Below, in pieces: positions 2,172 through 54,505 of a stretch of 64,000 bases of DNA; position 1 is the stretch's first letter, and each line of letters begins with the position of its first letter. Made by a program: the position numbers and the translations under genes. This DNA comes from an uncultured Opitutales bacterium. Lineage in GTDB: Bacteria > Verrucomicrobiota > Verrucomicrobiia > Opitutales > T3Sed10-336. The notes under the pieces were generated by a model. The model searched no databases. It was not told the origin of the DNA and was given only the letters and a program-made list of their open reading frames with translations. The stretch spans positions 18,480 to 82,479 of the forward strand of contig CAZYAN010000009.1 in assembly GCA_964645585.1 (NCBI GenBank), written 5' to 3'.

Positions 2172-2348
2172 CAGGCCGCACTGATCGTCAGCGCATCACG
2201 CTGGAAGCAGCGGGAACATCGGACCAGCGACGACGTTTCACCTCCAGCTGGCTGCTATTCGTTAATCTCGCCCGCTTGCCTGAGTTGACCAGCATGCGGG
2301 CGACCCGTTCTCTCTGGCGCTCCGATTTTTGTAGCCTCCATTTTCCTC

Positions 2349-3707: not shown

Positions 3708-4414
3708 ACGACCGTCAGCCTGCCCGCACCGTTTTCTTTAGCTTGTGGATGCGCCTTCTCTTTTTCCGGGCATCGCGTGAGGATTACAACACCCTGCGCC
3801 GCGGTCATTTTTGGGCGGGCCTTTTGATCACCTGGCTGGTCGGAATTGGCCGCTATTGGGACGATCCCCGCGCCGAGCCGCTGCAAATTCTCGGGGCCGG
3901 GTCAGTGATTTATATCTTCGTGCTCGCCGCGATTCTTTGGATCATTTTTAAGCCCGCGGCCCCAAAGCAGTTTTCCTATCTCCATATCCTGACGTTCATC
4001 GCCCTGACGTCGCCCCCCGCTGTCATTTATGCAATTCCAATCGAAAAGTGGGCGGATCTGGCAACGGCAAATAAGCTCAATCTGATTTCACTCGGAATCG
4101 TCGCGACGTGGCGCGTCGGTCTCCTGTTCCACTACTTGACCGTCCATGGTCGGCTCGATGGTCTGCGAACGTTTATCTGCGGCACGATGCCGCTCGCTGT
4201 GATCTTCGTAGCTTTACTTTCCCTGAACCTGCATCACGTGGTTTTCGATATCATGGGAGGAATCCGCGAAGCCGACTCCAGCTCCCAAGACGCCGCCTAC
4301 GCAATCCTGTTCTCCCTGTCCGTCCTCGCAATTCCCCTTTCAGGTTTATCGACGCTGCTCTGGCTCCTGATGCTTTTCAGCCGTCCTAAAGAATCGGATA
4401 CAAAACGGGGGTGA
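3704..4414 (+). CDS. polytopic membrane protein, family not recognised
   Basis: 236 aa. The start overlaps the radical-SAM stop (ATGA at 3704-3707), suggesting co-translation. It has several hydrophobic helices (AGLLITWLVGIG, VIYIFVLAAILWIIF, MPLAVIFVALLSL, ILFSLSVLAIPLSGLSTLLWLLMLF). Confidence 0.6.
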   Translation: MNDRQPARTVFFSLWMRLLFFRASREDYNTLRRGHFWAGLLITWLVGIGRYWDDPRAEPLQILGAGSVIYIFVLAAILWIIFKPAAPKQFSYLHILTFIALTSPPAVIYAIPIEKWADLATANKLNLISLGIVATWRVGLLFHYLTVHGRLDGLRTFICGTMPLAVIFVALLSLNLHHVVFDIMGGIREADSSSQDAAYAILFSLSVLAIPLSGLSTLLWLLMLFSRPKESDTKRG

Positions 4415-4448: not shown

Positions 4449-6368
4449 CTACCGCTGCACGACTCGTAACCGGATAAACCGGCGGTCGGAGGCGTTGAAA
4501 CTCGTCCGGTCGCGGACCGTTACCGTTTCGCTGTCGCCCGCATCGATCACACTGACAACTTCCGTGTAGTCCGACCCCGAGAACCAGTCGGCCAGATTCC
4601 GCGAAACTTCGACGATGTAATCCATGTCGTCCCGGTCCTTCGGTCGGTTAAACGTCAACGATACGTAGCGTTCATTATCGATCTCGACCTCTCCGTAAGC
4701 TGGAAGCAAATGCCGCTGATAGACATCCGGCTCCAAACCGAGCGCATAACGGAGGAGATTCGGAATTCCGTCGACCGGCGATGGCGCACCGGGCGCGTAT
4801 GCCGACAGATCGCCGCTCAAGCCGCCGCCTTTCGCAATCTGCTCGCCCTGCCAGCCGGCAAACGTCGGCGAACCTGTTACCCGCAGACGCATGAATCGCT
4901 TCGATGCTTCCTCCATCGGGGTCAAATCCCGCACGGTCACGTCTTCCCAAGCTCCCGCGTCCTCCACTCGTACAATCTCTGTGTACTCCGGTCCCGACTG
5001 CCAGTCCGCCAATCCACTGCCGACTTCCGCCAGGTAATTCAAATCCGTCGCACCCTTAGCTCGGCGATACCGCACGGTCAGGTAGCGTTTGCCATCTTCG
5101 AAAACTTCCGACCCGGCCGCGGGCAAACCCCGCGGAGATGGATTCGCCCCATTCAAATAGAACGCGTACCGCAACAGGTTCGGCACCCCCCGTCCACCAG
5201 GGTCCGCGCCCGGACCTCCGATTTCCGGATTCTCCCGGTCCGCTTCATCCGGATAGTTGGCCAATTGCCAAAAACTGTAGGCCGTTGAAACGGTAAAGAT
5301 TCCGCTCGCCCCTTCCCGCCCCTCGGCATCCTGAGCCAAAAGCTCATGCTCGCCCGGATCGGTCACAGCAACCAAATACGACGCCAGGACTCCTCCTTCA
5401 AACGGCGTCGTCGTCCCGCCTCCCGAAGCCAAATTTCCGGTGGCGCTCAAATCGACGGATTCATCAAAACTCGGCACCGTCCGCCCTAAACTGTCAACCG
5501 CGCGAATCGTCACCGTAAAGGGAACACCGACGGTCTGCGGCCCGACCGCATCAAACGCGAATCCAGCGACAGTCACCGGTTCATCATCCAGACCGAATAC
5601 GAACACCTCCGCATTCGCCACTTCGAAGACACCGCTGAATGTCAGGGTTGTCTCCGCCGCCGGCCGCGAGTCGGGACTGCCGAACAGCGTCAGCGTATAG
5701 GTGTTCTCCCCGCTCAAGCCGCCCGTCGTGCTCCCGTCAGCACTCACCAGATCGTCCAGGTTGAAAAACGCCTGATTCGGACCAGCCCCGTCGCCAATCA
5801 CCGCGGCAAGTCCGTACGGCGACGATGGCGTCTTCAGCAACAGCGCTCGCCCCGCCAGATCGTCCCTCGAAAACTCGACGAGCAATTGTCGCGATCCCGC
5901 CACAAACCCGGTCTTGTCCGTGGTCCGTACCGAAGGCAATGGTGCCGCATCCGGCAATATCCGTCCCGGTCCCGGCACCGCAAGCGGGGTCTCGTTCACC
6001 TGAAAATAATAGGTTGTCCCCGGCTCGCACCCGCTCACCCGCACGAGCATCGACCCGCTCTCTGCCATCCCTTGTTCCAGCGATCGCCGCACACCGCGAG
6101 CAATGTATCCTTCCGGCAAATACAAATCACCCGTATGCAGCGGAAATGCCTCAATCCGCAAATTGCCGGTGATCTCTATACTTCCACCCTCGTCCGAAAA
6201 AACGGAGATCCCCGGCGTCGCCGCACTCGGTGCCTGCCACAAAACGGAAAATCCATCCGGACTGACCTGCACTACGTGCGGTTCCTCGCCATAAACAGCA
6301 ACCGCGGCAATCGTCGCCAGCCAAACCGGAAGCAGCCATCTTCCAAAAGTTCTTCTCATAACTTTCAC
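4449..6368 (-). CDS. secreted protein with an FN3-like N-terminal domain, an Ig-like middle and a duplicated ~130-aa C-terminal domain
   Basis: 639 aa with signal peptide MKVMRRTFGRWLLPVWLATIAAVAVYG. It has two paralogous C-terminal modules (GVPNLLRYAFYL...RFMRLRV and GIPNLLRYALGL...RFIRLRV). The GTG start overlaps the upstream stop (GTGA at 6365-6368). It is the last gene of the operon. Confidence 0.7.
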   Translation of the reverse strand: MKVMRRTFGRWLLPVWLATIAAVAVYGEEPHVVQVSPDGFSVLWQAPSAATPGISVFSDEGGSIEITGNLRIEAFPLHTGDLYLPEGYIARGVRRSLEQGMAESGSMLVRVSGCEPGTTYYFQVNETPLAVPGPGRILPDAAPLPSVRTTDKTGFVAGSRQLLVEFSRDDLAGRALLLKTPSSPYGLAAVIGDGAGPNQAFFNLDDLVSADGSTTGGLSGENTYTLTLFGSPDSRPAAETTLTFSGVFEVANAEVFVFGLDDEPVTVAGFAFDAVGPQTVGVPFTVTIRAVDSLGRTVPSFDESVDLSATGNLASGGGTTTPFEGGVLASYLVAVTDPGEHELLAQDAEGREGASGIFTVSTAYSFWQLANYPDEADRENPEIGGPGADPGGRGVPNLLRYAFYLNGANPSPRGLPAAGSEVFEDGKRYLTVRYRRAKGATDLNYLAEVGSGLADWQSGPEYTEIVRVEDAGAWEDVTVRDLTPMEEASKRFMRLRVTGSPTFAGWQGEQIAKGGGLSGDLSAYAPGAPSPVDGIPNLLRYALGLEPDVYQRHLLPAYGEVEIDNERYVSLTFNRPKDRDDMDYIVEVSRNLADWFSGSDYTEVVSVIDAGDSETVTVRDRTSFNASDRRFIRLRVVQR

Positions 6369-7303
6369 CTCAGGGATTCACTTCCGCCCAGAACCTCGGC
6401 CTCCAACAAATCCAGCTCCGCCTGGAGGTCCGCGTCGTCACCGAGTCGCCGGTAAAACGAACCGCCCCAGCGGCCGGTTCCCGAACGGCCCCCGTGACGC
6501 AGAATCTCCTCGCCTCCAGCCAGAATCACGACACGTCGATTGCCCGACGCCCGGATCAGTTCCGCCATCCGCTCCGCTCGGCCGTCACCGCTGTCAATCA
6601 AAACCAGCAATCCGTCCTCGGGCCCAATTCCTTCGAGCGCACCGAGGCTTGTCGGTTTCGCGGCGGTCTCTCCGGCCGGGCCGTCCGCGAAAGCCACCCG
6701 GCGAACTTCCGGCTTCGGAACATCCAGAACGCGTGCCTCCGGGAACACCGACCGGAGATCAGTCAATTCCGGCAAACTTGACGCGACCCGGACCGGTCCC
6801 GGTTCGCTCGCCGGCTCACTCACCGGGGGTGCCTCGCGCAAATCCACCAGCACCGCCTCTCGCTGCGCCTTCGCCAACTGCTGGTACGTAATATACGGAA
6901 GGTGCTCGACCGTCATTCCCGCCGGGCGAGTCGTCGGCAGCGCGGCCGATTCCCATGCCGCAATTCCGCCCGCCAACACGCGTGCGCGGATTCCTTCCTT
7001 TTGGTCCAGCAGCAGCATCGCCCCTTCACCCGAAACTCGCCCGAGCCCGTCTCCGTACACCACCACTTCGCCGAGCGGAGGCAGGCCGCGGCGCGCGATC
7101 GCCGGCAATGCCACGTGAATCGCCCCCGGCAAATGCCCTTCCGCGTACTCACGCTCGGTCCGCGCATCGATCAGCGTCAGCTTGTTCCCTTCTTCGAGCT
7201 CCCGGGCCAAATCGGCCGCCGTCACCATTCCCGCACCGTAACCATTCGCTCCGGCCGCAGCGATGCCGGCCGCCATCCAGATCCAAATTCTTTTCACAAC
7301 CAT
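6365..7303 (-). CDS. secreted tandem rhodanese-like domain protein, cysteine-free (predicted non-catalytic)
   Basis: 312 aa with an N-terminal hydrophobic signal. The rhodanese fold motif is LTLIDARTEREYAEGHLPGAIHV...VVVYGDGLGRVS...LAGGIAAWE, with a second degenerate copy (LLVLIDSGDGRAE...VVILAGG). The whole translation contains no Cys. Confidence 0.75.
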   Translation of the reverse strand: MVVKRIWIWMAAGIAAAGANGYGAGMVTAADLARELEEGNKLTLIDARTEREYAEGHLPGAIHVALPAIARRGLPPLGEVVVYGDGLGRVSGEGAMLLLDQKEGIRARVLAGGIAAWESAALPTTRPAGMTVEHLPYITYQQLAKAQREAVLVDLREAPPVSEPASEPGPVRVASSLPELTDLRSVFPEARVLDVPKPEVRRVAFADGPAGETAAKPTSLGALEGIGPEDGLLVLIDSGDGRAERMAELIRASGNRRVVILAGGEEILRHGGRSGTGRWGGSFYRRLGDDADLQAELDLLEAEVLGGSESLR

Positions 7304-7316: not shown

Positions 7317-10300
7317 TTAAAGTTCGGGCCGCCATCCGGTCACCGGTTCGACCATGTCTACAAAAATTACCGCCACTTCAGGAATCGGAAAATCCGGCCC
7401 GGTCAGCAAACCGTTCCGCACTTCAATCGTCTTCCAAAATCCCGACGCCGCATCCAGCATCCGCAGGGCACGCACGTTCTCTGCACCGAGCTGACGCGCC
7501 ATCCGGTGCGCCGTATAGCCTGCCGGGAAACCGGCATAGCCGAGACTCGTCACCCCGTCGCTAAGATCGATTTCTCCCGAAACCGTTCCCAGATCGAGGA
7601 TCCGCCCTTCATCGAAAGAGACCCACAAGAATCCGCCTTCCTGGAGCGTGAAATTCTCACCGCTCGCCGCACCGCCTTCCCAGCTCGCCCGCTCGATCTC
7701 GACCGCGGGCAGCAAGTTCGACACGCGCTCGATCGCCACAACGCCCGCCCGATCCTGCCACGCTTCAAGCAAATTAAACGCGTCTCCATAGCGATCCGCC
7801 AAGGCCGCGGTCACAACCACCGCGTTGTTGTTGTCGAACACCTGCTGCAACGCGGGAATTCCCGCAGTGCGAATCTCCTCGCCGCCATCGGTCGTTTCCT
7901 GCCAGACCAGCTGACCGGCCGCCAGCACCGGACGCGTCTTCGCCGAGATCGTATTCGTCAGCGGAGCCACCCGAAGATTATCCAGGCTCAGCAGCCGGAT
8001 GTTGCTCAAATTCGCCCCGACCGAATCTTCCTCCATCACGACCCAATGGCCAAGCAGGAACGGACGCGTCTCGTTCTCCGGCGAATTCGTCAGGCGGGTT
8101 TCCGTTCCCCGCAGCAAATCCATCCCGTACAGCTCCAGTTGCGTGTGACGGTTGTCCTGCCACACAATCCAGTTTCCAAAAATTTTCGGATGATACTGGC
8201 CGTCCGTGTTGTCGGTGATCCGGCGCGTTTCCCCGGTTTCCAAATCCGCGAAGTAGATTTCGCCCGGCCCAACATCCCGATGGTCCTGCCAAACGATCCG
8301 TCCGGCATGAATATCCAGATCCTGCTGATTCTCGGTGCTCGGATTCACCAGGAAGTTTTCGCCGGTCAAAATGTTAATCGCCCGGATCTGCCACGGCGCC
8401 TGACTGTCGTTCACCGGCCGGCTCTGGAAGGCGATCCATGGCCAATCGATTACCGGCTTGATATCATTTCGTTCCGGACTGCTCGTTACGCGCGATGCCG
8501 GCGCGAATGTATTCAAATCCCGGATCCAAATATCCCAGGCGCCATTCTCGCGCCGTCCCTGCCAGACGACATAACGTCCGTCGGTATACGGATTCTCCTG
8601 GGCGGCCGACCCGGTTGTGATCGGCTGCACCGGTGCCGACGGCGCAGTCAAACGGCGTCCGACAATGTTCCACGATCCTTCTGCCCGGTCCTGCCAGACG
8701 ACCCAGTCGCCCCGCGCGTGCGGTCCGGCAGCGCCCCGGCTCGCGTCCGCAACGGTCGCTTCCCCCGCCGCCAGATTCTGCACCTGAACCAGCTTAGACG
8801 CGTGCGCCACGTTCCCGAGACTGTCCACCAATCGGACGCGCACCACATACCAGCCGGCCGGCGCCAAATTTCCGGCGTCATCCCGGCCGTCCCACAAGAA
8901 GCGGACCGTTTGACCCTGCACGCCAGGGAACGTCGCCGATCGTACCAAGGTCAAACGCGAAAAATCCGAACCGTATTCAGGATCGACAACCCAAGTAACC
9001 GTCGTTGCGTTCTCCGCCTCCTGCCATTCATCCCCGGTTTTCCCGATCAGCGAAACCGTCTGTGTGCCGGGCGTGAGCGCCGACAGCGAGATCGGCTCCG
9101 TCAATGGCGCTTCCGCCCGGAAATATCCGCCGTTGATCGTCCAGCGATATAGATCCGCGCCCGCCGACTCCACCGTCAACGTCACCGACCGCGCCGCGGT
9201 TGGACTCGGCGGAACTCCGGCCACGGAAAACGCCGGCGCCGAAGCGTCCACCTTCCACGTAACCTCCAGCGCCTCGCTTTCGGGCAAATACCCGCCGTGT
9301 ATCGAACGGCCCAATACGGCCACCGTCACATCCCCTGACAATCCGTCCAGGACGAGCTTCTCAGCAACCGGCCGTTCCTCGGACCACGTGCCCCCATTCA
9401 GCCGGTAACGGTAAAAATCGACGTGACTGCCGCTCACCGTCAAACTGGCCGATCCCGATGGCGCCGGCGACGGGGGCACTCCGGCGATCGTCGGCCAAGC
9501 GATCACGCCCGCGAAGATATCGATTTGCGCATCGACCGCGACCGCGCCTGGGGCCGCGGTCACCGAAATCTCCGCTCCGTCCGGACGTACCGACAGCGTT
9601 TCTCCGCTGTGCAGCAGCGAAACTTCCTCCGAATCGAAGTCCGCGATTAAACCGGCCTCACCCGGCAAAACCACAATCGCCGTTTTCTCCGCTTCCCGGT
9701 TCCCCGCGATATCCTCCGCGTAATACGTGATCTGGTGTTCGCCTGGTTCACGGATCGTAAACGGCAAAGCCGGACGGAAGGCTTCGTCACCGATTTTATA
9801 ATACATGCTCACCGGACTTTCATCTTCCGCGATAAAGAAGATTTCCGTCTCCCGGTTCACATAATATTTTCCGTCGGCCTCAAAGACTTCGCCGGCAAAA
9901 TGGATTTCCGTAACCGGTGGTTCGTTGTCGAGCCCGGATTCTTTGTACTCGACCGTGTATTCGTAGGTCGCGCCGAGATCGACGAGGTCGAACAGATTCA
10001 AGTAGGTCAGCTTTCGGTTGCTGCCCGGTTCATAACGGATATTCGTCCAGACGTTCCGCCCGTTGATCACTTTTCCATCGGAGCGAACAACTCGCTCAAT
10101 CGCGAAACGCGCCTGCCCCGGATCGTCGATGCGCACAAATCCCCATCCTTCAAAATCAGCAGTCACGTCCATCGTAAACTTCCGGTCCGGTCCGATTCCC
10201 GACGTGACAGTGACCTGCGTTAAATGATTCACCGGCGTCACATTCCCTTCGCTTTCATACATCGCGTCGGGAATCAGGGCCTCATTCCGGTCGGTCACCG

Positions 10301-11297
10301 CGAGGAAATCGAGAATCCCGTCGCGTCCAGGCTGGTCATTGATCACTTCACGCACAATAAAGTGCGCGTCGATCGAACGGATGACCGAAGTCTCCATCCC
10401 GCCCAATTCCGATGAGTGCGTATACGATGCCTTGAAATCGATAAATTCGCCGGAAAGCGACGTAATCATATCCCAGGCGCCTTTCTTCGTTTCGCCTGGA
10501 TAAATATCGCCTAGATCGACCAGCAAACTCGCCCGGTCGAGCGGACTGTCCATCACCCGGGCACCCAGCAAACGCGCAACCAGCAACAGCCCTTGGTTGT
10601 TCTCGACAATCCGCGGCTGCTGCGAATCAATCTTCAAGCTCCGCGCGATCCCGTAACCGGTGTTCTTTACCAAGACTCCCAGCGTAAACGGAATCGGGCT
10701 TTCCACTTCCGGCGTGAACGGATCATCGGCCTGAACGTCACGCGGCATAAAATAAGTGATTTCCAGCTCCGGCTCCGGATAGACCGAAATTGTTTCCGGA
10801 ATCGCGAACATGTTGTCTTCCGGAATCTCCACACCCGCGACTTTTCCGCTCATGTTGACTCCGACCAAATATTCCTTTCCGCGCGGATCCGTCCCGCCCG
10901 CGCCGATCTTCGGAATAATAAACCAGCGTATCTGCGCCGTCTTCGTCGGTCCAATCACGCCATCACCATCAATCCGGTTGATGTCGCGCAATCCGAGCTG
11001 TCGCACAAAAAACATGTCGGAAACGTCCGTGCCTTCCTCATCGTCCGGATCGTAGAAAACGAGGCTGGCGTAGAAATCCGTGATCGGATCCTCGCTTTCA
11101 TTGTTGGTGATTTCGAGCGTCGCTTCGAATCCCATCCGCTCGATGGTCAGCTCCTGCAGGATCTCGATCTTAGCAGTCGCGCAAATTCCCTGAAATTGCT
11201 GCTGCGCCGCCGCCGGCACCGCAAGTGCCGCCAGCATCACAGCCGCCGCGGCACCCCGGCAGATCCGCTCGATTGGTTTCATCAAAAATCGCTTCAC
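7317..11297 (-). CDS. large secreted protein: unknown N-terminal region, Ig-like repeats, FlgD-Ig-like domain, 7-bladed 'VWQD' beta-propeller, unknown C-terminal domain
   Basis: 1,326 aa with signal peptide ...AAAVMLAALAVPAAAQQ. Seven blades appear at about 7860-8720 (WVVWQDRAEGSWNIV, YVVWQGRRENGAWDIW, RIVWQDHRDVGPGEIY, NWIVWQDNRHTQLELY, QLVWQETTDGGEEI and others). There is an FlgD-Ig-like FLWDGRDDAGNLAPAGWYVVRV. The GTG start overlaps the giant ORF stop (GTGA, 11294-11297); an alternative ATG is at 11282. Confidence 0.8.
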   Translation of the reverse strand: MKRFLMKPIERICRGAAAAVMLAALAVPAAAQQQFQGICATAKIEILQELTIERMGFEATLEITNNESEDPITDFYASLVFYDPDDEEGTDVSDMFFVRQLGLRDINRIDGDGVIGPTKTAQIRWFIIPKIGAGGTDPRGKEYLVGVNMSGKVAGVEIPEDNMFAIPETISVYPEPELEITYFMPRDVQADDPFTPEVESPIPFTLGVLVKNTGYGIARSLKIDSQQPRIVENNQGLLLVARLLGARVMDSPLDRASLLVDLGDIYPGETKKGAWDMITSLSGEFIDFKASYTHSSELGGMETSVIRSIDAHFIVREVINDQPGRDGILDFLAVTDRNEALIPDAMYESEGNVTPVNHLTQVTVTSGIGPDRKFTMDVTADFEGWGFVRIDDPGQARFAIERVVRSDGKVINGRNVWTNIRYEPGSNRKLTYLNLFDLVDLGATYEYTVEYKESGLDNEPPVTEIHFAGEVFEADGKYYVNRETEIFFIAEDESPVSMYYKIGDEAFRPALPFTIREPGEHQITYYAEDIAGNREAEKTAIVVLPGEAGLIADFDSEEVSLLHSGETLSVRPDGAEISVTAAPGAVAVDAQIDIFAGVIAWPTIAGVPPSPAPSGSASLTVSGSHVDFYRYRLNGGTWSEERPVAEKLVLDGLSGDVTVAVLGRSIHGGYLPESEALEVTWKVDASAPAFSVAGVPPSPTAARSVTLTVESAGADLYRWTINGGYFRAEAPLTEPISLSALTPGTQTVSLIGKTGDEWQEAENATTVTWVVDPEYGSDFSRLTLVRSATFPGVQGQTVRFLWDGRDDAGNLAPAGWYVVRVRLVDSLGNVAHASKLVQVQNLAAGEATVADASRGAAGPHARGDWVVWQDRAEGSWNIVGRRLTAPSAPVQPITTGSAAQENPYTDGRYVVWQGRRENGAWDIWIRDLNTFAPASRVTSSPERNDIKPVIDWPWIAFQSRPVNDSQAPWQIRAINILTGENFLVNPSTENQQDLDIHAGRIVWQDHRDVGPGEIYFADLETGETRRITDNTDGQYHPKIFGNWIVWQDNRHTQLELYGMDLLRGTETRLTNSPENETRPFLLGHWVVMEEDSVGANLSNIRLLSLDNLRVAPLTNTISAKTRPVLAAGQLVWQETTDGGEEIRTAGIPALQQVFDNNNAVVVTAALADRYGDAFNLLEAWQDRAGVVAIERVSNLLPAVEIERASWEGGAASGENFTLQEGGFLWVSFDEGRILDLGTVSGEIDLSDGVTSLGYAGFPAGYTAHRMARQLGAENVRALRMLDAASGFWKTIEVRNGLLTGPDFPIPEVAVIFVDMVEPVTGWRPEL

Positions 11298-14200
11298 GGC
11301 TCGATCCCCATTTCAACAAATGCTTCAAACAATTCCGTGCCGGGCGCTCCGCACTCGTGCTCCAGCAAGATGCCGCCTGCATAGAAAACGCCGTCGTCTT
11401 CCATGTGCAGCGTGTAAACCGTCTCCCGCTCGGGAAGCTCCGCCACGCGCGTAACCTTCCAGAGCCGGCCGTCGTCTCCGTGCAGCCAGTCGCCAGCCTC
11501 CACGTTGACCGCGGCAGTCCAGCCGGTGCCGTCCACCCAGATTCGGTGATCGTTCGTCACCTTCAACGAGCTCCCCGCGCCGCCGAAGACCGGTTCATAA
11601 AAGATCTCCCGGACCTTGGCGGATTCGCGCGTCCGAATCTCAGCCACCGGATTGCCGATTCCCGAACCCGAGAACAACCGGTCGCCCACCGCCAGCTCGT
11701 CGATTCGCCGCACAGAGCCGTCCGCCAACGTCACCAGAGTTTCTCCCGTCACACAGGCGGCCGCCGTCATCGGCCAGCTTCCGCCGCCGCCCCAGACGGT
11801 TCCGCCTCCTCCGCCGCTCGGGAGCGGCCTGCCGGTGATCTGGCCTTCCGGCAACTGGGCCAGCGCACACGCGAGTCCCTTGATGATGGTGTTAGCGATA
11901 CAAACCGCCTTCACAACTTTGATCTTTTTCAGGATCTTTCCACTGACGCCTTTGCACGCGAAGTCCAGCAACTTGTCGATGTTGATCGTCGCTGACGCGC
12001 CCGGGTAATAACTCGCCCCATCCGGGCATTCCGACTCGCCCCGCGCAAGCAGCGTCAAGGTAACATCGCCATACTTGAAATTCTTATAACAATCGATCGC
12101 GTCGCCCAGACTCCCGCCGCCTTCGCCCATCGCGACGCGCCCGCCGCCACCGCCCGCAGCCAGTTCCTCCTCGGTCCCGAAATACTCCACTCGGGTCGGA
12201 ATCAAGATCGTTTCCTGCGCCCGGATCTCGGGAATATAGGTGATCAATGGCGTCAACTCCGCGGACTCGACTCGCTTTCCGAAGATTTCCGCGTCAAATA
12301 CGCTGATCAATCCTTCATTCCTCACCTCGAACATCACCGTGCCGACAAACCCCGGCTCGACTTCGCTCAAGGTAACGTTCTGCGGCGTCATCACCAGCAC
12401 CGGCACCGGCACCCGCGTCTGGAACGTCTGCTCAATTTTAATCTCGTAACGGTCGGTATACGGAACGGGAACGACCGAGAAATTGACCGTCACCATGCTG
12501 CGGTCCAAACGGGTCTCGACCGTCGTCGTCTCGTCCGGACTGACCCGCACGATTCCGGTCGTTCCAGAATGCCCGGCCGCCGTCACCCGCCACGACCAGT
12601 CGCCTTCCATCAAATCCGGAACCACAACTTCCCCTTCCGCGTCAGTCTCAAACGGTCCGGCCTCGATGCCCAGCAGTGCGTTTCTCATGAGAACCGTCGC
12701 GTTCGGCACCGGCAGCACAAGAACGTTATCGACCAGGAATTGCACGGATCCGGTCTGCGACGAGGTGATCCGCGTAAAAATATTCAAATGAAAATCGCTC
12801 ACCGTATTTCCGCCCCGGATCGTGATCGTATCGTTGTAGAATCCTTGATCCAGACTCGACGGCGGCGTCAGCACGACTGAGAAGGTAAACGTTTCGCCGA
12901 CTTCCAAATCCGGCAAAAGCACCGTCCCGTCCGGCTCCATCGGCAAATTCACCGTCATCCACGAATATTCCGCCGGCAGGATCATCACCGCATCCTCCAG
13001 CGTCCGCAGCCCGCGGTTCTCAATCGTCACTTCGCGGCTGAAAATCTCGCCGCGATTCAGGCTCGCCTGTACGTAACCAACCCTCGGGCTCGGGACCGCA
13101 AGGATCGGATTCGCCGCGAGCAAACTTACCTCTCCCGTAAACAGGGCCGACGCGCCTTCCGCCGAAACCAGGCGGAACTCCACCAGCGCATGATCTGGCG
13201 ATTCCAATTCCGCCTGCAAACGCAGCTTCACGGTCCGCCGCTGACCGCCCGCCGCCAGGCTGGGAACCGCCTCCACGAGCGACCCCGTCAGCGCTTCGGT
13301 CGCCACTTTCTCGCCGTCAATGACTTCGAACGCCGAAAATTCCAGAGCGAAATCCGTAAGCGGCAGATCACCCGGATTGATCAACCCGATGCTGAAATCG
13401 AGCGTGTCGTTCTTCGACATCCGTATTGTGCCCCGCGCCGGAGCACTGTAAACCCGGTAGAACTGGAACGCTGTTTGATCCAGCCGGTCGACCACGTCCG
13501 GATGCGCCGCCCATACCTGGAAACTTCCTCCAAGACCCGCAGTCGGCCGGTATTCAAAGGCATAATTTCCGTTGGCGTCTGTGGTCGTTTCCTCAAACCA
13601 GTGGATGCCGCGCGTCGAGAAACCGATGTGCAACGGCACCTCCGGCACCGGCAAGCCTGTCTCCCGGTCCAGCGCCTGGCCCGTCAAAATCACCGTGTCG
13701 TCATCCGCGTACAGCGCCTTGTCCGACATCGATGTCCCGTAATAGGGGGTCTGCGTCAGCCCCGAACTCATCATGCCAACGAGCGGACCCGACACGCGCT
13801 CCTCGGCTGTCCCGATCGCGTGATATATCTTCGCCAGCTCGGCCTGCAGAATCGCGCCGCCGCCTTCACCCAGCACTTCCGGTATCAATACATCGGGTAC
13901 GGTGACCGTCCGCGACTCGCCCGGCTGCAGCCGCCAGAATCCAGTTCCGTCCGGTGCGAAAATCAAGCCAGGCACAAGCGACGCGAAACTGGTCCGGCTC
14001 ATCTCGACTCCCTGCGGATTCAAGACCGCAATCGACAGATCGCCCGGCTCGGCCCCGCCCTCGCGAATCAGCACGACGTCCATGTCCGCGTAGCCGCGAT
14101 TGAAAACCGTGACGGTGAACTCGTTCAAACCGCCAGCCAGCGGCGCCGACGGCGTCGTCACACTCATCATCAGTCCCGGTGACGTCACCGCGTTATAAGA

Positions 14201-17200
14201 AACCGTCCGGCGGTAAATGGCCTGACTCCCGCCGTCGTCCACCTGCTGCAAAGCCTCGATCTCGAACAGCCGTGCCCCCGCCGAATGGCTCACGCCCGGA
14301 AACACCAGCGTCTCGACAGCGCTCTCCCCGCTCAAAACGAATGCGTTGATCGCCTTCCGGATCGAAACTTCCGGCTCCTCACTCGAAGTTCTCCGCAAGC
14401 CAATCTCGTGCAGTGACCAGCCCTGGGCTCCCGCCAAGTTCGTTGCACTGACTTCGTAACGATCGAAATACACCGCTCGCATCGGCTGGTCGGCCCCGTC
14501 ATTCCCGGGATTAAATCGCGCCGACAATTCGATCGGATAAACGGTCAGCGCACGCGCGGCGCTCTCTTGCCCAGAAGCGTTCACCGTGCGAACCGCGTAA
14601 CTCACAGGTTCGGTCCCAATCGTCAGCGTGTCCTGATACAGGGTGCCAACAACCGGTATCGTGTTCCGTTTCGCTCCGTTCCGGTAGATGTTTACCCCGA
14701 CAGCAGTCGGATCCGGCGAATTCCATTGCAACAACGGAGCGAAGCCATCCTCAACCGTCACTCGCAAGCTCGTCACCGCGCCCACATGCAATTCGAGCGT
14801 TGCCGAATCGCTCAGGTTTTCGTTTCCGACCGCATCGACGGCAGCCACGGCGTACGTGATCTCCCCGCGCGGCGGCGAATCGTTGATTTCTCCCGCCGAG
14901 CTAACGGTCCGGATCACCGTTCCATTTCGGTAAACCCGGTACGCCGCCGGAACTTCTTCCTCCGCAGGCGCCTCCCACGAAACCCGGATTCCCGTCACTC
15001 CTAAACTCGCGGCCAAATTCAGCGGTTTGCCCGGAGGTGTCCGGTCCGACACGCCCGGCACTTCATTCGACGCCGCACTTTCCGACGAAAACCGGCTCGC
15101 GGTTATCGAATACAGATACGTCCCATCCGCTGGGGGCAAATCGACAAATTCCGTCGCCGTCACGCCGGCCGCCAGCAATTCGCCCGCCTCAAGGCTTCCG
15201 TCCTCGCGACGAAAAACCGCGTATTCTTCCGCTCCGCTGGCCGCGTCCCATTCCAAGCGAATCTCACCGCCAGCAAGCGAAGTCGTCCGCAAGCCGACCG
15301 GAACCGGCGGCGGCTCCGGCAAGGCTGTCGTGTAAATTTCAATTTCAGCGCCGTCGGCGATTACGGTTCCTTCGTTGCCCAGCGCGTCTACCGTCTCCAG
15401 GAAAAACTCCCCGAAGCCCGAGCCCATCGCCGGCGTCAGCGTCAACGTTCCGCTCCAGCTCGCTCCTTCCCCAGTCAGCGCAATGGCGAGATTCTGACCG
15501 TCCGGCGCCCGAAAACTTAACTCCGGTGTCATCCCGGCCGGAACCGGCTTGCTCAGCGCCAAACCGACTTCCATCGTCACGTCCGCCAAAACCTGAACGG
15601 GAACTGCACGGTCGATCGTCACCACGCCGGTCGGGCGCGTCAGATCGAAAACCAAGGCCGGTCCGGCCGGTGTTCCAACGAATTCATTGCCGACTAAATC
15701 CCGGCCGGATACTCGGACTTCCGCCACGCCGCTCGAAGCCGACAGCGGCGACACTGGGAAGGTCCCTTGATACACCAGTTGCGAAACCTGGCTCAGTGTC
15801 ACCGTGATCGGACTGCTCGCACCTTGCGCGCGCAGGGTCAGCATCGGCGTTGCCGCAAGCGGTTCATCGGCCGTCAAACTGATCGTCAGCGTCCCCGGGC
15901 CGACCGGCGAGGCGTGGCTGTAAGAAATCGTAAACGCAGGCGGCGAAGTGTCGTAGTCGACTTCCCGAAGGTTTGAAATCGGGCTCATGTTCCCCGCGTT
16001 ATCGACCCCGACCACCGCGAAGAAGTAAATCCCGGTCGGCAGGCCGTCCACCGTGTAGTCCATGGCGAACCCGGCTTCGGCTTGCCCGCTCGCCTCTTCC
16101 GCGGCCGAGAACGGCTCCTCATCCCAAAGGAGACGGAAGGTCGCCGCCCGCTTGCCGTCCGGCTGGTAGCGCCAGGTGAATGAAACCCCTTCGCTCGGCG
16201 AGAAAACCGGCTCTTCCAAAATCACCGACGCCGGCGGCCCCGTGTCCCGCTCAACCGTCACGGGCAGTGACGAGCCGCTGCCCAAATCGTCAAACGCAAT
16301 CACCGAGAACTCATTACTTCCTTCCACCAACTCCACATCGGCGAAGGCAAACCGTCCGTCCGCACCCACCTCGGCCGTCGCCATCGGAACCCCGTTCCGC
16401 GTCAGTCGAACCGAGACAGAGGCTTCCGCCGTGCCCTCGACATCGACCGTGTCCGCGTTCGTCAAGAAACCATCCGCCGGCGAGGTGATCCGCGGAGCGG
16501 CGGGCGGTGTCGGCTGCACCGTCACATTGTGCTCGCGCGTCGCTACGCGTCCGCCATTGTCCGTCGCGCGCAGCATCACCCGGTAGATGCCCGGACTCAA
16601 TCCCTGCGGATTCCATTGGCCAGACAAATTGCCGCCGCTCGCGGTCAGCACCGGAACGCCATTGACCAAAAACTCGATCGATGCCACACCGAGGACCGCG
16701 GTTGCACTGCCGGTAACCTCGGTCGGACGAGTCACCAGTTGGCCTTCGCTCAGATTGAATTCGGCGATCGCAGGCCCGTCTGTCACGTATTCAATCGGGA
16801 ATGACACCGCCGGACTGGTCTCGCCCGACACGCTTTGGAATTGAACAAAGACCGTTTTCAGCCCACCGGATGGCGACAATTCAAACGTCACATCATACGG
16901 ATAAGCGGTGTAAATATCGCTCTCATCCTGCACCGGAACGTCTTGGAAGAAGGTTCCGCTAAAGGTCGAGTCTTCACTGATCCGGTAAGCGACCGCATTC
17001 GGCGAAGCCAGTGTCACGCCCAGGTTCCGCGTTCCCGTTTGCGAAATTCCACCCGCGGCTGCAGCAGCAGGAGCCAGAACCGGCTCCTGCACCAGCGGAT
17101 TCGCCGCGTCCACATTGCCTTCCAGCCCCGCTTCAATCTCCGGGGCCAGACTCGTCCCCCACCAGTTCCCTTGGGCAGTCAATGTCGATCCGGTTTCCGC

Positions 17201-20200
17201 CCGCGCATTCACTCCATTGCTCTTCACAACGGAGTCAATCAGTGTTACCGAGCTGTTTCCGCTTAAATCAATCCCGGTTTGATTCAACAGCGCCAGCGAA
17301 TCGCCAACCAGCTGGGCGGAAACGCCGTCGAAAGTTATGCCGGTCGTGTTCCACGCGAGTCGCAATGCGTTCAAATCCGCGTTCGTATCCGAAATTTGGA
17401 TTCCATCGCCGTAACGCACCCAGACATGATGCAGGATCGAATCCCCGGCGTTCGGGCCAATCGCGATTCCTGTCCAGTCTCCCGGTGCCGCAGTCCCGCC
17501 TTCTTCATTGGCGGAGGTGAAATGAATCGGCGCGATCGCGGTCCCTTCGGCGATCAGGGCGCCGTTTTCCACCGTTAATCCCGCGCCATCGACAAATCGC
17601 AAGGTCGTTCCCGGCTGCACCGTCAATCGCGCGCCGTTCGTCACCACAAGCGATTCGTGAACCACAATTTCGGTTTCCCCGTCGCCGCCGACCTCCAGAT
17701 CGCCGGCGATCGCCCCGGCGAGAGGATCGGACCAGCGGACACTTGTCACCGCCGGATCGAACTCGCCAATTCGATTAAAGCCGACCACCGCAAAATGATA
17801 TTCCCGCGTCCGGTCGAGGTTCAGGTGCTCAAACATCGAAGCTGCCGCACCCAGCTCGGCAACCGGGGTCATCCCTGCCACAGATGTAAACGGAGCGTCC
17901 GATACAAATACCCGGAAGCCGGCAAAGCCGACCAATCCATTTTTTGGGTACGACGGCCAGCTCAGCCGCACACCGCTCAAATCGACGTTCGTCAGCGAAA
18001 TCGTCACTGGCGGCGGCAAATCGCTTTCAAGCCGCACCAGCAGCGACTCCAGCGCGGAGTCCGCATTGCCGGCCGCGTCAACCGCGGCGACCGCCACGTG
18101 ATAATCCGTGTCCGGCTGCAAGTTTGAGAACGTAAAGCTCCGTGCGGCCTTCCCCGCTCCCGAGAACACCGGGATTTCGTGAATCGAAGTAAACGGTGCG
18201 CTGTGACGGTAGATCCGGAAGGCGCTCAAATCCGCCGGCGCCGTGTAATCGGACCAGGAAACCGTCGCTGAACTTGTCGTGGTCGCCGCAATCGTCAGAG
18301 CCGGATGCTCCGGCGGCGTCGCGTCCACCGTGAATTCGAAAACGGTTCCCGCTTCCATCTCGCGGCCATCCAGATCTTTCGCTCCAGCCAGATGCAGCAA
18401 GAAGGTTCCATCGTGTCCGGCGCCGAATGTCACCGGCGGCGTCGTAAATGTGTCGTTATTGACGGCACCGCGACTCCAGACACCATTCCCTGGGAACACC
18501 GGCGCGGGCGTTTCACTGTCTGATTGCAAGGTCGCCACCGGGACCGCCGCCGGATCCATCGTCCGGTCAAAACGCACGCTGATTTGATAAGCCAATCCCG
18601 CCGGAACCGCGCCCGATTTACTTCCGGACGCCGCCACAACCGCCGGCCGCAAACTGCGCGCCTGGTAGTGCGCCACAAAGTGCATCTCGGCCGGATCGAG
18701 CGTCGTAAACAGTTTCTCCACCGTCCGCAGGCCGCTGAAATGCGTCCCGTTCAGTGTGAACTTTTCGAATACGTATTCCGTATCGTCCTGAACAACCGTC
18801 GCCGGGGCCGAAAGGGTTGTCGTCTCCCCGTTGCTGAAGGTTCCCGCGCCGGACACCGCCGCGATGCCTGCCGGTTCGGTTGCCGTCGTCACTTCATGAA
18901 CCGGATTCGCCTCCGTGAAATGCGCCGTCAGCGACCGCGCCTCAACCGCCGCAAACGCCAGCACCGGTTCCGTCGAAATCGTTGTCCCGCCTTCTGACCA
19001 GTGACTGAACAGATAACCCGGCTGCGGGTTCGCCGTCAGCTCGACGGCACTGCCGTGCTGGTGCGCGCCTCCTCCTGAAATCGTGCCCCCTCCCGCCGGA
19101 TTGGCCGACACCGCGATGAAATAATTCGGCAGCGCGAAGACCGCGGTCAGTTCCCGGTCGCGAATCGCCGTAAAGGTGTAGGACGCGTTCCCGCTTCGGA
19201 ACGCCCCGTTCTCCGCCCAGTTGACAAAGCGATACGGCAAGACCGATGTGTCCGGTGTCGCCGTCACCGTCACGGTCGCTCCCTCCGGATAGACACCGCC
19301 GCCGCTCACCGAGCCGCCTTCAGCCGGAACAGCGTCCAAACTGATGGTGAAAAACGCGGTAATGCTGAAGGTCGCGACGGCGAGATTCTGCTCCGCGACC
19401 GCGTGTCCGTCAGGGCCGTATTCAAAATGTGCATCATCAGCGTCGGTACGGACTTCCACCCGGTAGTTTCCTGGAAGCGCCGTCGCGAAACTCGCCGCCC
19501 CCGGAACGAACGCATCCACCGCCAAATCCTCCGTCACCTCACTTCGCTCATCGAACACGACGGTGTTCGTCGCCAGGTGACGCACCTGCACCCGGTCGGC
19601 GAATCCGCCAGTCACCATTGCCGCACCCCGGTTCCAAGTCTCCCACGAAACATGGTAGACGCCGTCCCCGTCCGGTCCGGTCAGCGTCAGATTCTCAACC
19701 ATCAGATCCGGGTAGTCGTTCAGCTCAACCGTAAACGGCGATTCGGTGAAGGTTTCATTATCCCCTTCGAGCACGAACTCATTCACGACGTTTGTCGAAT
19801 CCGTGCGGACAATGACGTAAAAGCTCCCCGCTATCCCGTCCGGAATTCGCACCTGCCGGGTTACGGTGTACGTCTCGCCCGGCGCCAAGACGCCGGATCG
19901 CTGGTGCAAATCAAGGGCGAAATCGTCCTCATCGCCGAAAATCGTGTTCGCTGACAGCACCGCTTCGTCATACCAGACACCGACCTGCGTCGCTTGAGAC
20001 CCAACGTTGCCGACCTCGTATTCGATCGTAAACGTCTCGCCGCTCTTGATATTCTCCACGCCCGACGCCGACAGGTTGACCACCTGCAAATTGGGGAAGC
20101 TCACGCCGCCGCTCGGGACAATCAGGGCGTCCAGAATATATTCGCTCATCAATCCGCCCGTGCTTCCGGAACTGCGCACGAGCGCGAAATATTCGCCCGT

Positions 20201-35446: not shown

Positions 35447-35521
35447 TGGTGCACCCACCGGGAGTCGAACCCAGATCGTCGGCTCCGGAGGCCGATGTTC
35501 TATCCATTGAACTATGGGTGC
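35447..35521 (-). tRNA. tRNA-Arg (anticodon CCG), CCA encoded
   Basis: The minus strand reads GCACCCA TA GTTC AATGGATA GAAC A TCGGC CTCCGGA GCCGA CGAT CTGGG TTCGACT CCCGG TGGGTGC A CCA. This is a clean 75-nt cloverleaf folded by hand. Confidence 0.9.
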
Positions 35522-54423: not shown

Positions 54424-54505
54424 ATTAACTGTCTGTTATTTGGTTACTGGTTATCGGTTATTCGTTTTCAGTGATCGCCCGGTCACGGAGAGAGAAGAAA
54501 AAAAA

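Follow-up and report, generated by a model that had tools for sequence, protein, structure and literature searches.

The final 153 residues of a 6,027-residue giant protein encoded in the window (the 64,000-nucleotide stretch of Opitutales DNA analyzed here) are, judging from profile matches and a structural model, a real self-processing domain of the Hedgehog/intein (Hint) type with predicted activity, and the Hint-capped giants form a large, unannotated Verrucomicrobiota family that lacks toxin cargo. The open reading frame of the giant protein was confirmed in the sequence (11294..29377, minus strand). It begins with a Sec-type signal peptide (residues ~1-44; 29246-29377, minus strand), downstream of which are FG-GAP, LamG, pentaxin, Big_5, PPC, fn3, CARDB, and CarboxypepD_reg domains. 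Pfam identified no anchoring or sorting domain of known type in the giant protein, in agreement with an earlier note on this DNA that had recognized no such signal. The protein contains eight Cys, comprising one in the signal peptide and seven in the last 265 residues. A conserved pre-Hint module (residues 5662-5874; 11756..12394, minus strand) can be aligned together with the Hint domain across most of the family and consists of a beta-sandwich, a low-confidence helical segment that carries two family-invariant Cys (C5763 and C5837; columns C102 and C176 of alignment A1), and a Gly-rich linker ending in GGGGSWPMTAAA. In an AF2 model of the giant C-terminus (366-aa query, 28-sequence alignment), the sandwich has a pLDDT of ~88 and the helical/Gly part of <50.

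The Hint-fold domain spans Cys5875-His6007 (11357..11755, minus strand). The earlier note had placed such a domain at this C-terminus on the basis of sequence blocks, namely AAA-CVTGETLVTLADGSVRRIDELAVGDRLFS, VTNDH (T5941/H5944), and VFYAGGILLEHE followed by Cys; all were found, the codon of Cys5875 (11753-11755) coincides with the upper end of the region assigned to the domain, and CGAPGTELFEAFVEMGIEP closes the protein as described. Six Hint-clan Pfam models match the same stretch (e.g., Hint, 1e-4; PT-HINT, 1.5e-4, 22.4 bits), so that the profile search suggested in the note bears out the assignment in part, but every match falls under its gathering score (27.7 bits for PT-HINT). The top PDB sequence match is 2lwy, a bacterial intein-like domain. 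The suggested structure prediction was confident (pLDDT of 83-98 for residues 211-350 of the 366-aa query and >90 in the Hint domain), and Foldseek identified the model as a Hint fold with a probability of 1.00 to BIL2 (6y75; E = 2.5e-9), the gp41-1 intein (TM of 0.89, normalized to the target), BIL 2lwy, and Hedgehog 1at0.

Across the family, PT-HINT was matched by 14/14 Hint domains of alignment A2, above or near threshold (best, 47.7 bits), and the profile of that alignment matched BIL2 (2e-16) and 2lwy (1e-13) in the PDB. By sequence profile, the family belongs to the PT-HINT/A-type BIL lineage. The window Hint domain is a divergent member, with Val for Phe at position 2 and Ala for Gly at position -1. 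When compared to its closest relative, it has a dN of 0.205 and a dS of ~1.5, indicating purifying selection that is no weaker than in the rest of the protein.

The residues expected to drive cleavage at the N-terminus of the domain are retained. Cys1, the nucleophile of the predicted scissile junction Ala5874-Cys5875 (11753..11758, minus strand), is kept in 119/119 aligned terminal domains, and the residue at -1 is mostly Gly (61) or Ala (25); the junction consensus of the family is G-C-F and that of the window protein is A-C-V. Block B reads T-N-D-H (Thr5941 and His5944; 11546..11557, minus strand), and its Thr and His are invariant in alignment A1 (T280/H283), with the His present in 134/134 terminal domains. 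At the other end of the domain, alignment on gp41-1 (...FYANDILTHN), BIL2 (...FFANGVLAHN), and the family (...FYANGVLVHD-x-CG) puts Glu6006-His6007 (11357..11362, minus strand) at the intein penultimate-His and terminal-Asn positions, Glu6008 at +1, and Cys6009 at +2. The earlier note, in which His was penultimate, Glu the last residue, and Cys the +1 residue, was therefore off by one in register, while its point that a terminal Asn is lacking stands. The penultimate residue varies across terminal domains (H75/Q21/R16/E11/Y9), as does the last (D73/Q24/E17/N11/H9), and the combination of a last His and a penultimate Glu occurs in the window protein and its closest relative. Terminal Asn is found in 11/134 terminal copies versus 54/56 internal or tandem copies, and penultimate His in 75/134 terminal versus 56/57 internal copies. 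Conversely, Cys6009-Gly6010 (11348..11353, minus strand) represents a motif in which Cys occupies +2 in 124/126 terminal domains and Gly occupies +3 in 111; as such, the motif is absent behind internal Hint copies.

Collectively, the terminal copies appear to keep the catalytic set of Hedgehog, comprising C1, TxxH, and a second Cys but no Asn. Hedgehog autoprocessing runs through a branched thioester on the second Cys, using C1 and that Cys without an Asn (PMC12054796). The Hedgehog-style reading that the note had advanced is thus chemically sensible, since the selected residues match this set, even though its register was wrong and its claim of novelty too strong. Cys6009 lies, by eye, 1-2 residues from the position of Hedgehog C143 or the intein C+1, and only the N-terminal half of the domain aligned to Hedgehog with hhalign. 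Because D, Q, E, or N occupies the last Hint position in 125/134 terminal domains, slow C-terminal cleavage of the cyclization type may be possible for most of the family, the His of the window protein excepted. The penultimate His is also lost in the lineage of the window protein, and for this reason its predicted activity could be reduced. Folding of the Hint domain outside the cytoplasm could, in addition, lock Cys1 and Cys6009 in a disulfide.

The Hint domain is followed by a tail of 20 residues (Glu6008-Pro6027; 11297..11356, minus strand) and a stop codon, consistent with the earlier statement that no toxin-sized cargo is present. The sequence of this tail is variable across the family. 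Relative to the closest relative, its dN is 0.32 and its dS 0.48 (18 codons), versus a dS of ~1.5 elsewhere. The stop codon of the giant gene overlaps the start codon of the next gene in a GTGA (11294..11297, minus strand), indicative of translational coupling; an ATGA or GTGA overlap occurs in 27/33 related loci with a callable downstream ORF, and many related loci have a GGAGG-type Shine-Dalgarno a few bases upstream. A sorting signal at the tail end was considered and rejected in favor of an explanation at the DNA level, given the overlap, the GGAGG, and the low dS of the tail: the apparent motif is, as read from the nucleotide sequence, the ribosome-binding site and overlapping start of the downstream gene.

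The short tail is not peculiar to the window protein. In a sample of 151 proteins (150 representative matches and the window protein), the Hint domain lies within 70 aa of the C-terminus in 134, most of which are giants of 3,000-7,200 aa. Tail length, counted from the +2 Cys in 109 representatives, has a median of 19, a mode of 17, and a maximum of 61 aa, and no toxin-sized tail was found in family members with this operon. The Hint-plus-short-tail arrangement is therefore conserved, and the possibility raised in the earlier note that a large cargo had been truncated in this protein is contradicted by the many homologs that end alike.

The note had also observed that no immunity-like gene lies downstream, and the next gene indeed encodes a secreted protein of 1,326 aa (7317..11297, minus strand). 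This partner comprises a signal peptide, approximately four beta-sandwiches, OmpL47/PKD-type and Ig-like domains, a TolB-like beta-propeller, and a C-terminal domain; it is 43-58% identical across 35 related loci, always directly downstream of the giant gene. An AF2 model of its N-terminal 470 aa (pLDDT 87) retrieved only integrin-leg-like Ig chains with Foldseek. The sole Cys of the mature window partner, Cys39 (11181..11183, minus strand), occupies position 8 in the predicted mature sequence QQQFQGIC... and sits in a flexible, exposed N-terminal segment (AF2 pLDDT 53). It is invariant in 28/28 verrucomicrobial homologs and in all 32 sequences of alignment A4, Gammaproteobacteria included. 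The operon continues with a 312-aa rhodanese-like protein (6365..7303, minus strand) that has a signal peptide and contains no Cys, and is thus predicted to be catalytically dead, and with a 639-aa secreted protein (4449..6368, minus strand) for which Pfam returned no match. These four genes are common to ~35 Verrucomicrobiota genomes. Flanking genes are shared by 36/37 species-level genome loci, the exception being Trinickia (27% identity); almost all of these loci are labeled Verrucomicrobiota, with one Pontiellaceae and a few mislabeled MAGs.

Residues 5117-5730 of the giant protein (the sandwich and ~550 residues upstream) are homologous to Hint-less proteins of Orbus and Entomomonas (1,258 and 1,268 aa), which have Cys at equivalent tail positions (...PGC-SPQAS-C-ASGG and ...PAC-IPD-C-EDG-C-GG) and whose loci also encode rhodanese-like proteins of 286 and 287 aa. 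Homologs of the partner N-domain and of the giant C-terminal module adjoin Rhs toxins with Sec signals in Orbus, Entomomonas, and an ENA contig; in locus L040, only the partner N-domain family follows a 6,136-aa YD/Rhs giant. The coupled partner gene, its invariant single Cys, and the Hint-less gammaproteobacterial homologs had not featured in the earlier note.

We favor, with moderate confidence, a model in which the Hint domain is a domesticated, functional cap that acts only on its own N-terminal junction and matures a four-protein surface system. Following Sec export, Cys5875 together with Thr5941 and His5944 would carry out an N-to-S acyl shift at the Ala5874-Cys5875 junction. The acyl group, i.e., the 5,874-residue ectodomain, would probably pass to Cys6009 to form a Hedgehog-like branched thioester that is then resolved by water or another nucleophile. 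We infer that this would remove a ~17-kDa Hint-plus-tail cap and leave a mature protein ending in the Gly-rich linker, the tail being neither cargo nor sorting signal. Intein-type C-terminal cleavage would not be expected in the window protein because Glu-His stands in place of His-Asn. N-terminal autoprocessing is likely on sequence grounds, and transfer of the ectodomain to an acceptor is plausible.

Such a transfer is the essence of a possible but doubtful alternative, in which a specific acceptor rather than water attacks the Cys5875/Cys6009 thioester and becomes covalently joined to the ectodomain, as in Hedgehog or the Tetrahymena BUBL system. Candidate acceptors are an envelope lipid, peptidoglycan, and the partner, which could react through its Cys39 segment, its N-terminal amine, or a Lys. 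Cys1 alone would suffice for self-removal, yet the second Cys is almost always retained and the Asn lost, the same arrangement as in Hedgehog, where the acceptor attacks the branched thioester. Moreover, the nearest PDB relative by both profile and fold, Tetrahymena BIL2, conjugates its N-flank to Lys of other proteins, the giant protein has no other anchoring signal in Pfam, and the translationally coupled partner offers an invariant, flexible, and otherwise unpaired Cys. However, the short tail leaves no adduct-recognition region behind the Hint domain, and the partner Cys is not N-terminal, such that chemistry of the native chemical ligation type would not directly give a peptide bond. This Cys is also equally invariant in gammaproteobacterial systems whose giant homolog has no Hint domain, which suggests that its presence is unrelated to Hint chemistry and that a disulfide is its more likely role. 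An unlikely reading takes disulfides further: Cys5875, Cys6009, and/or partner Cys39 would form periplasmic disulfides, the precursor would never be cleaved, and the Hint fold would serve only as a structural cap or partner interaction surface. The clustering of Cys in the C-terminal module and the tail Cys of Hint-less homologs, suggestive of an ancestral disulfide role, are consistent with this, as is the Hedgehog C1-C143 disulfide, which reportedly forms and requires reduction before processing (PMC3051819). The invariance of the block-B Thr and His and the lack of any Cys1-to-Ser/Ala variant (0/119) are nevertheless hard to reconcile with a purely structural disulfide, and PT-HINT domains of toxins exported by Sec/T5SS are thought to be active outside the cytoplasm (PMC3482391).

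Two further readings concern what follows the domain. Release of a ~19-residue variable x-Cys-Gly peptide, or splicing of that peptide to the giant protein, would fit the D/Q/E/N at the last Hint position of most terminal domains (Asp and Gln reportedly can support cyclization in atypical inteins), the constrained tail length, and the resemblance of the G-C...C-G flanks, minus the Hint domain, to the tails of Hint-less homologs. We regard it as very unlikely: the Glu-His of the window protein and its closest relative precludes cyclization, the +1 residue is a non-nucleophile, and the tail is unconserved beyond Cys-Gly, with its 3' end explained by the ribosome-binding site of the downstream gene. 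Finally, the domain could be the relic of a PT-HINT toxin that lost its toxin and immunity gene, given its PT-HINT lineage and the Rhs toxin neighborhoods described above. This is largely refuted and hardly credible, since the short tail recurs in 134 representative clusters and in ~35 genomes with conserved synteny, the catalytic residues are invariant in a domain under purifying selection, and tails never reach toxin size in members with this operon.

A Hint domain of this kind resembles several known systems but differs from each. With PT-HINT (PF07591)/A-type BIL domains of secreted polymorphic toxins it shares profile-level family, fold, Cys1, TxxH, Sec-exported bacterial surface hosts, and the ...FYANGVLVH domain end. 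Those domains end in canonical His-Asn, whereas the family here mostly ends in H-D and the window protein in E-H; ~19 residues, with an invariant Cys-Gly at +2 and +3, stand where a toxin domain and immunity gene would follow, and the host protein and its operon show conservation instead of hypervariability. Hedgehog HhC shares the Hint fold, the alignable N-terminal half (hhalign probability of 95%), the G-C-F cleavage-site consensus of the family, the catalytic set, and a C-terminal location from which the upstream polypeptide is the product. It differs in possessing a sterol-recognition region after the Hint domain in place of a 20-residue tail, the window junction is A-C-V, the second Cys of the family is offset by about two residues from C143 (by eye), and the family is nearer in sequence to BIL/PT-HINT than to Hog. 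The best PDB match, BUBL BIL2 (6y75/6tmm), has a domain end that aligns with that of the family and is a precedent for transfer of an N-flank to another protein without ATP. Unlike the family, it is eukaryotic, cytoplasmic, and flanked by ubiquitin-like domains, and unlike the window Hint domain it keeps His-Asn, and its acceptor is a Lys in the C-flank domain. Class-1 mini-inteins (e.g., gp41-1) share the fold and recognizable blocks A, B, and G; the window domain, in contrast, has no terminal Asn, +1 nucleophile, or homing endonuclease, interrupts no conserved host domain, and is fixed in its lineage rather than sporadic. Alphaproteobacterial secreted proteins can likewise end in bacterial Hint domains that lack the canonical intein motif at the C-terminus, namely the B-type BIL/Hint_2 (PF13403) domains, for which N-terminal cleavage is known, but the profile match is marginal (E = 0.015 for the window protein; 4/14 family members) and host proteins and lineage differ.

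The suggestion in the earlier note that Hedgehog-like maturation of a bacterial adhesin would be new was overstated. N-terminal self-cleavage by BIL (Hint) domains of secreted bacterial proteins has been on record since 2003 (PMC7765530), and in the closest PDB relative of the family, also a BIL domain, the N-flank becomes conjugated to other proteins without ATP (PMC8616854). In the favored model, the reaction would be the maturation step of a conserved system comprising the giant protein, its coupled 1,326-aa partner, the presumably dead rhodanese-like protein, and the 639-aa protein. Since the family keeps the cutting or transfer chemistry but carries no toxin cargo, the probable role of the Hint cap is maturation of the giant protein, not cargo delivery.

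The giant open reading frame on the minus strand (11294..29377) encodes 6,027 residues that begin with a Sec-type signal peptide, followed by FG-GAP, LamG/pentaxin, Big_5, PPC, Ig, fn3, CARDB, and CarboxypepD_reg domains. Its last 153 residues open at Cys5875, whose codon (11753-11755) is the upper coordinate of the feature delimited in the earlier note, and comprise AAA directly before CVTGETLV, then VTNDH, then VFYAGGILLEHE followed by Cys; the C-terminal end is CGAPGTELFEAFVEMGIEP. Six Hint-clan Pfam models matched this domain (E 1e-4 to 6e-2, all below gathering scores), as did NCBIfam intein_Nterm (E 1e-3), and the best PDB sequence match was the bacterial intein-like (BIL) domain 2lwy from C. 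thermocellum (E 3e-3). Taken singly, these database matches are weak, whereas the modeled fold provides strong evidence. In an AF2 model built with a 28-sequence alignment, residues 211-350 of the 366-aa query had pLDDT values of 83-98, with values above 90 over the Hint domain. Searched with Foldseek, this model matched over 40 intein, BIL, and Hedgehog structures at probability 1.00; among them were Hedgehog 1at0, 2lwy, many inteins, Tetrahymena BIL2 6y75 (E 2.5e-9), and the gp41-1 intein (TM 0.89 normalised to target). The domain thus displays both hallmarks of the HINT superfamily, the horseshoe-like fold (AF2, Foldseek) and an N-terminal Cys/Ser nucleophile with a block-B TxxH (Cys5875, Thr5941, and His5944, all family-invariant). 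Collectively, the sub-threshold profile matches and the predicted fold bear out the proposal of the earlier note that the giant protein ends in a Hint domain.

The giant is nearly devoid of Cys: of its eight, one belongs to the signal peptide and seven cluster in the last 265 residues (C5763, 5784, 5808, 5826, 5837, 5875, and 6009); likewise, every Cys of four orthologues (P0002, P0012, P0014, and P0017) lies within the last ~370 residues. A low-confidence helical segment (11756-12100, minus strand) separates the last beta-sandwich from the Hint domain; it carries the family-invariant C5763 and C5837 and precedes a poly-Gly linker. This segment is moderately hydrophobic, with a Kyte-Doolittle 19-residue maximum of 1.76 here and up to 2.86 in the family protein P0024. 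The possibility that a transmembrane helix divides ectodomain and Hint domain, leaving the latter in the cytoplasm, was rejected as a family feature, because such maxima exceed 1.6 in only ~40% of members; in those members, the peaks sit in Ala/Gly-rich helices. Cys-count parity was also considered as a sign of an intermolecular disulfide and was dismissed because the pattern was not consistent.

To place the domain end, the window sequence was compared with gp41-1 (...FYANDILTHN), BIL2 (...FFANGVLAHN; the PDB sequence is that of the deposited N143A mutant), and the family consensus (...FYANGVLVHD-x-CG), all of which agree on the register. Glu6006-His6007 occupy the intein His-Asn positions, Glu6008 is at +1, and Cys6009 is at +2. 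The register assumed in the earlier note was therefore shifted by one residue, while its observation that a terminal Asn is absent holds after correction.

Word-indexed homology searches returned no match with the Hint domain alone and one fragment with the 366-aa query. An exhaustive HMMER search of the giant's last 366 residues against 1.84 billion representatives yielded 2,203 matches at E<=1e-3 and 175 at E<=1e-10, and the best 150 of the 2,203 together with the window protein (151 proteins) were analyzed. These proteins are named only 'hypothetical protein' or 'FG-GAP-like repeat-containing protein' at source. The Hint domain lies no more than 70 residues from the C-terminus in 134 of the 151, and most full-length proteins with such a terminal Hint are giants of 3,000-7,200 aa; the other 17 have internal or tandem copies, up to eight consecutively. 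Five of the family proteins (P0115, P0101, P0105, P0097, and P0029) are strings of 3-8 canonical (His-Asn) Hint domains joined head to tail, in which each Cys1 follows the Asn of the preceding domain at a distance of one to three residues. Measured from the +2 Cys, tails have a median of 19, a mode of 17, and a maximum of 61 residues and thus leave no room for a toxin domain in any protein. The earlier note had described a short tail without toxin-sized cargo and had proposed a survey of homologous giants for this arrangement; its retention in 134 of 151 proteins indicates a conserved feature rather than a truncation.

Alignment of 204 Hint domains to the family profile (135 terminal and 69 internal copies) revealed different residue patterns in the two groups. 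Cys1 is present in all aligned copies, whether terminal (119/119) or internal (62/62), and the block-B His in 134/134 terminal and 60/64 internal copies. At the penultimate position, internal copies have His in 56 of 57 cases, and terminal copies vary (H75, Q21, R16, E11, Y9); at the last position, Asn occurs in 54 of 56 internal copies, compared to D73, Q24, E17, N11, and H9 among terminal copies. The +1 position is variable in terminal copies and mostly a gap or Lys in internal ones. Terminal copies then have Cys at +2 (124/126) and Gly at +3 (111), positions at which internal copies have no conserved residue. These counts show that terminal copies have retained the N-terminal acyl-shift machinery, relaxed or changed the Asn-cyclisation machinery, and fixed a second Cys just past the domain. 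The closest relative, at locus L042, is 69% identical to the window protein across the final 366 residues. Between the two, the Hint domain has a dN of 0.205 and a dS of ~1.5, and is thus no less constrained than the remainder of the giant.

Only Cys-Gly is conserved in the tail, whose acidic character and lack of a hydrophobic stretch speak against a tripartite signal of the sortase/exosortase type. An apparent motif at the tail end, (E/G)-V-x-(K/R/P/Q), was considered as a peptide sorting or recognition motif and rejected. A downstream ORF could be called at 33 related loci; at 27 of these, and in the window, the giant stop codon overlaps the start of the next gene (ATGA or GTGA), and many of them have a GGAGG-type Shine-Dalgarno sequence a few bases before the overlap. 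The tail-end motif coincides with these elements, and tail dS is depressed (0.48 vs ~1.5, over only 18 codons). Together, these sequence features indicate that the motif reflects a translational-coupling signal rather than a peptide signal.

A scan at one genome per species recovered 37 loci, almost all labelled Verrucomicrobiota; one is from Pontiellaceae. MAGs at six loci with the verrucomicrobial operon (L002, L005, L017, L022, L032, and L035) are labelled Bifidobacterium, Bifidobacteriaceae, Saccharimonadales, or Akkermansia muciniphila, which are probably binning or labelling errors. The gene order of the window, namely the giant, a 1,326-aa secreted protein (7317..11297, minus strand; hereafter the partner), a rhodanese-like protein, and a 639-aa protein (4449..6368, minus strand), is kept in ~35 of 37 loci. 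Across related loci, the C-terminal 1,034 residues of the giant before the pre-Hint module are 39-49% identical and the partner is 43-58% identical. Just past the operon on the opposite strand (750-4414, plus strand) are genes for a class-III aminotransferase, a B12-binding radical SAM enzyme, and an unassigned 236-aa ORF, a cluster whose conservation was not seen in related loci as far as those reach. The window also encodes a bacterial small SRP RNA (54505-54603, minus strand, 68 bits), tRNA-Arg(CCG) (35447-35521, minus strand), and tRNA-Gly(CCC) (59990-60064, minus strand).

In addition to its signal peptide, the partner has roughly four Ig-like sandwiches, a TolB-like propeller, and domains of the OmpL47/PKD and Ig types. 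The mature N-terminus is predicted to read QQQxQGxC (QQQFQGIC in the window), which places a Cys at mature position 8 (codon 11181-11183, minus strand) that is invariant in 28/28 verrucomicrobial homologues and in 32/32 sequences of a broader alignment. This is the sole Cys of the mature window partner, and in the AF2 model it lies in a flexible segment (pLDDT 53). The N-terminal 470-aa fold was considered as a hint of enzymatic acceptor function and was rejected, given that AF2 and Foldseek revealed nothing beyond Ig-like sandwiches arranged in a chain similar to integrin legs. The rhodanese-like protein (6365-7303, minus strand) is exported and tandem, and its active-site Cys is replaced (VVVYGDGLGRVS). 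Since it has zero Cys, it is catalytically dead, which rules it out as a sulfur-transfer enzyme acting on a thioester; presumably it is a binding module and not a sulfurtransferase. It is conserved in both the verrucomicrobial operon and gammaproteobacterial loci.

Homologues of the partner N-domain with 37% identity were identified in Orbus, Gilliamella, and Entomomonas. Three loci, from Orbus (L038, 10001-21679), Entomomonas (L039, 10001-21844), and an ENA contig (L041, 10001-20987), encode, in order, a partner-like protein, a rhodanese-like protein, a 1,255-1,268-aa protein, and an Rhs toxin with a Sec signal. The cluster resembles an accessory gene set, so far undescribed, that serves exported Rhs toxins. 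The Orbus toxin is Ntox33, and a small ORF follows the Rhs toxin in both the Orbus and Entomomonas loci. The partner-like proteins keep the N-terminal Cys (...ECAEVKI...), and the 1,255-1,268-aa proteins, which have no Hint domain, are homologous to giant residues 5117-5730 and end in Gly-rich tails (...PMPITPGC-SPQAS-C-ASGGASNGAK and ...PMPLTPAC-IPD-C-EDG-C-GG...), with Cys where the verrucomicrobial proteins show G-C[Hint]x-C-G. This suggests that a Hint domain was either gained between two ancestral tail Cys or lost with both left behind. A further locus (L040, 1-13872) encodes a 6,136-aa YD/Rhs-type giant with a small Cys-rich domain at its end, directly followed by a partner-like 669-aa protein with a signal peptide and then ...SVCATVRIEI..., and, further downstream, a 240-aa ORF with a PEP-CTERM-like signal at its end (PEPASGVLLGMAAVWLSTVRRRR).

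With respect to lineage, the window domain scored 22.4 bits against Pfam PT-HINT (PF07591; cut-off 27.7), and all 14 Hint domains of the tighter family alignment (A2) matched this model at E<=0.01, the best with 47.7 bits. The A2 profile in turn matched BIL2 at 2e-16 and 2lwy at 1e-13. By contrast, Hint_2 (PF13403), which represents B-type BILs, matched the window domain below its cut-off (E 0.015; 16.1 vs 28.4 bits) and only 4 of the 14 A2 members at E<=0.01, and the domain does not qualify as B-type. In an hhalign comparison with Hedgehog HhC (with an approximate query sequence), only residues 1-76 of the N-terminal half aligned. The PT-HINT and BIL matches point to a divergent member of the PT-HINT/A-type BIL lineage, and both fold and profile place the domain within the HINT superfamily.

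Nevertheless, two features that define PT-HINT are missing: the conserved C-terminal His-Asn, which is Glu6006-His6007 here, and a position directly before a C-terminal toxin with a downstream immunity gene, replaced here by a 20-aa tail and the conserved gene for the secreted partner. The definitions of inteins and Hog domains also exclude it. Inteins have a terminal Asn (or Gln/Asp) and Cys/Ser/Thr at +1, whereas the window domain ends in His with Glu at +1 and its Cys at +2. Inteins are sporadic insertions in conserved hosts, whereas all related verrucomicrobial loci whose sequence was readable have the Hint domain at the C-terminus of the giant (Hint motif in 33/36, tblastn match in 36/36), and splicing restores an intein's host, whereas the C-flank here is 20 unconserved residues. 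Hog domains have a sterol- or adduct-recognition region after the Hint module, and only 20 residues follow it here. By analogy, the predicted working of the domain is closest to that of Hedgehog or BUBL, yet it is a member of neither. We class it as a two-cysteine terminal BIL that lacks both cargo and Asn and is fixed in a four-gene surface operon conserved in Verrucomicrobiota. A literature search for this architecture in Verrucomicrobia, or for PF07591/PF13403, found nothing relevant. The novelty claimed in the earlier note goes too far, as BIL domains had been overlooked (PMC7765530).

Inteins act through C1, then a C+1 nucleophile, and then Asn cyclisation. PT-HINT domains are located just before toxin domains, which they release (PMC3482391). 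In bacterial secreted proteins, BILs of types A and B catalyse cleavage at their N- or their C-terminus (PMC7765530), and Tetrahymena BIL2 needs no ATP to attach its N-flank to Lys residues on other proteins (PMC8616854). Hedgehog, which has no Asn, relies on C1 together with another conserved Cys, C143, to which the thioester passes to form a branched intermediate that is then attacked by cholesterol (PMC12054796). The terminal Hint family has been selected for the same residue set (C1, TxxH, a second Cys at the domain end, and no Asn), the invariant second Cys, a putative counterpart of C143, lying 134 residues after Cys1, and Hedgehog-like chemistry is therefore judged the most likely. An N-to-S acyl shift between Ala5874 and Cys5875 would be followed by a probable relay of the acyl group to Cys6009, and resolution of the thioester would remove a ~17-kDa Hint-tail cap and leave a giant ending in the Gly-rich linker. 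On the basis of these residues and the Hedgehog analogy, we consider it reasonably probable that the window Hint domain autoprocesses. Of the Hedgehog-style action put forward in the earlier note, the chemistry is credible and on firmer ground than that note supposed, and anchoring or transfer stays hypothetical.

Transfer of the thioester to a specific acceptor rather than to water is doubtful. The invariant partner Cys is one candidate, but its retention, with the tail Cys, in Hint-less relatives weakens the idea of a purpose-made acceptor and favours an ancestral disulfide between the partner and the C-terminal tail of the giant. In its fullest form, the terminal Hint would be an extracytoplasmic, ATP-independent bacterial protein ligase that acts once per molecule, converting the C-terminus of the ~5,900-residue, adhesin-like giant to a thioester, relaying it to the second Cys, and coupling it to the partner or an envelope component, a Hedgehog-type anchoring across Verrucomicrobiota that we regard as speculative and rather unlikely. 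A purely structural cap locked by a disulfide is unlikely; C1 and C143 of Hedgehog can form a disulfide, which must be reduced first (PMC12054796), and the acyl-shift residues are retained throughout the terminal copies. Release of the tail peptide, or splicing, is quite improbable, and Glu-His at the C-terminal junction rules out cyclisation-type C-terminal cleavage for the window protein specifically. A decayed toxin would fit the PT-HINT lineage, but conservation of the short tail runs against it, and we consider this reading very improbable indeed.

Three roles of Hint domains are known: splicing (inteins), toxin release (PT-HINT/BIL), and cholesterol ligation (Hedgehog). The family described here is large, bacterial, and wholly unannotated, and its PT-HINT-type domain has lost both cargo and Asn but keeps exactly the residue set of Hedgehog; it caps a giant conserved surface protein, coupled to a partner whose one Cys is invariant. 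Were the domain merely to remove itself, the finding would be a modest extension of the BIL catalogue. If cleavage or ligation is confirmed, it would provide a bacterial model of the two-cysteine Hedgehog mechanism, an evolutionary intermediate from toxin-releasing BILs to Hog domains, and a maturation step of an apparent core system of the verrucomicrobial envelope, in a phylum about whose surface biology little is known.
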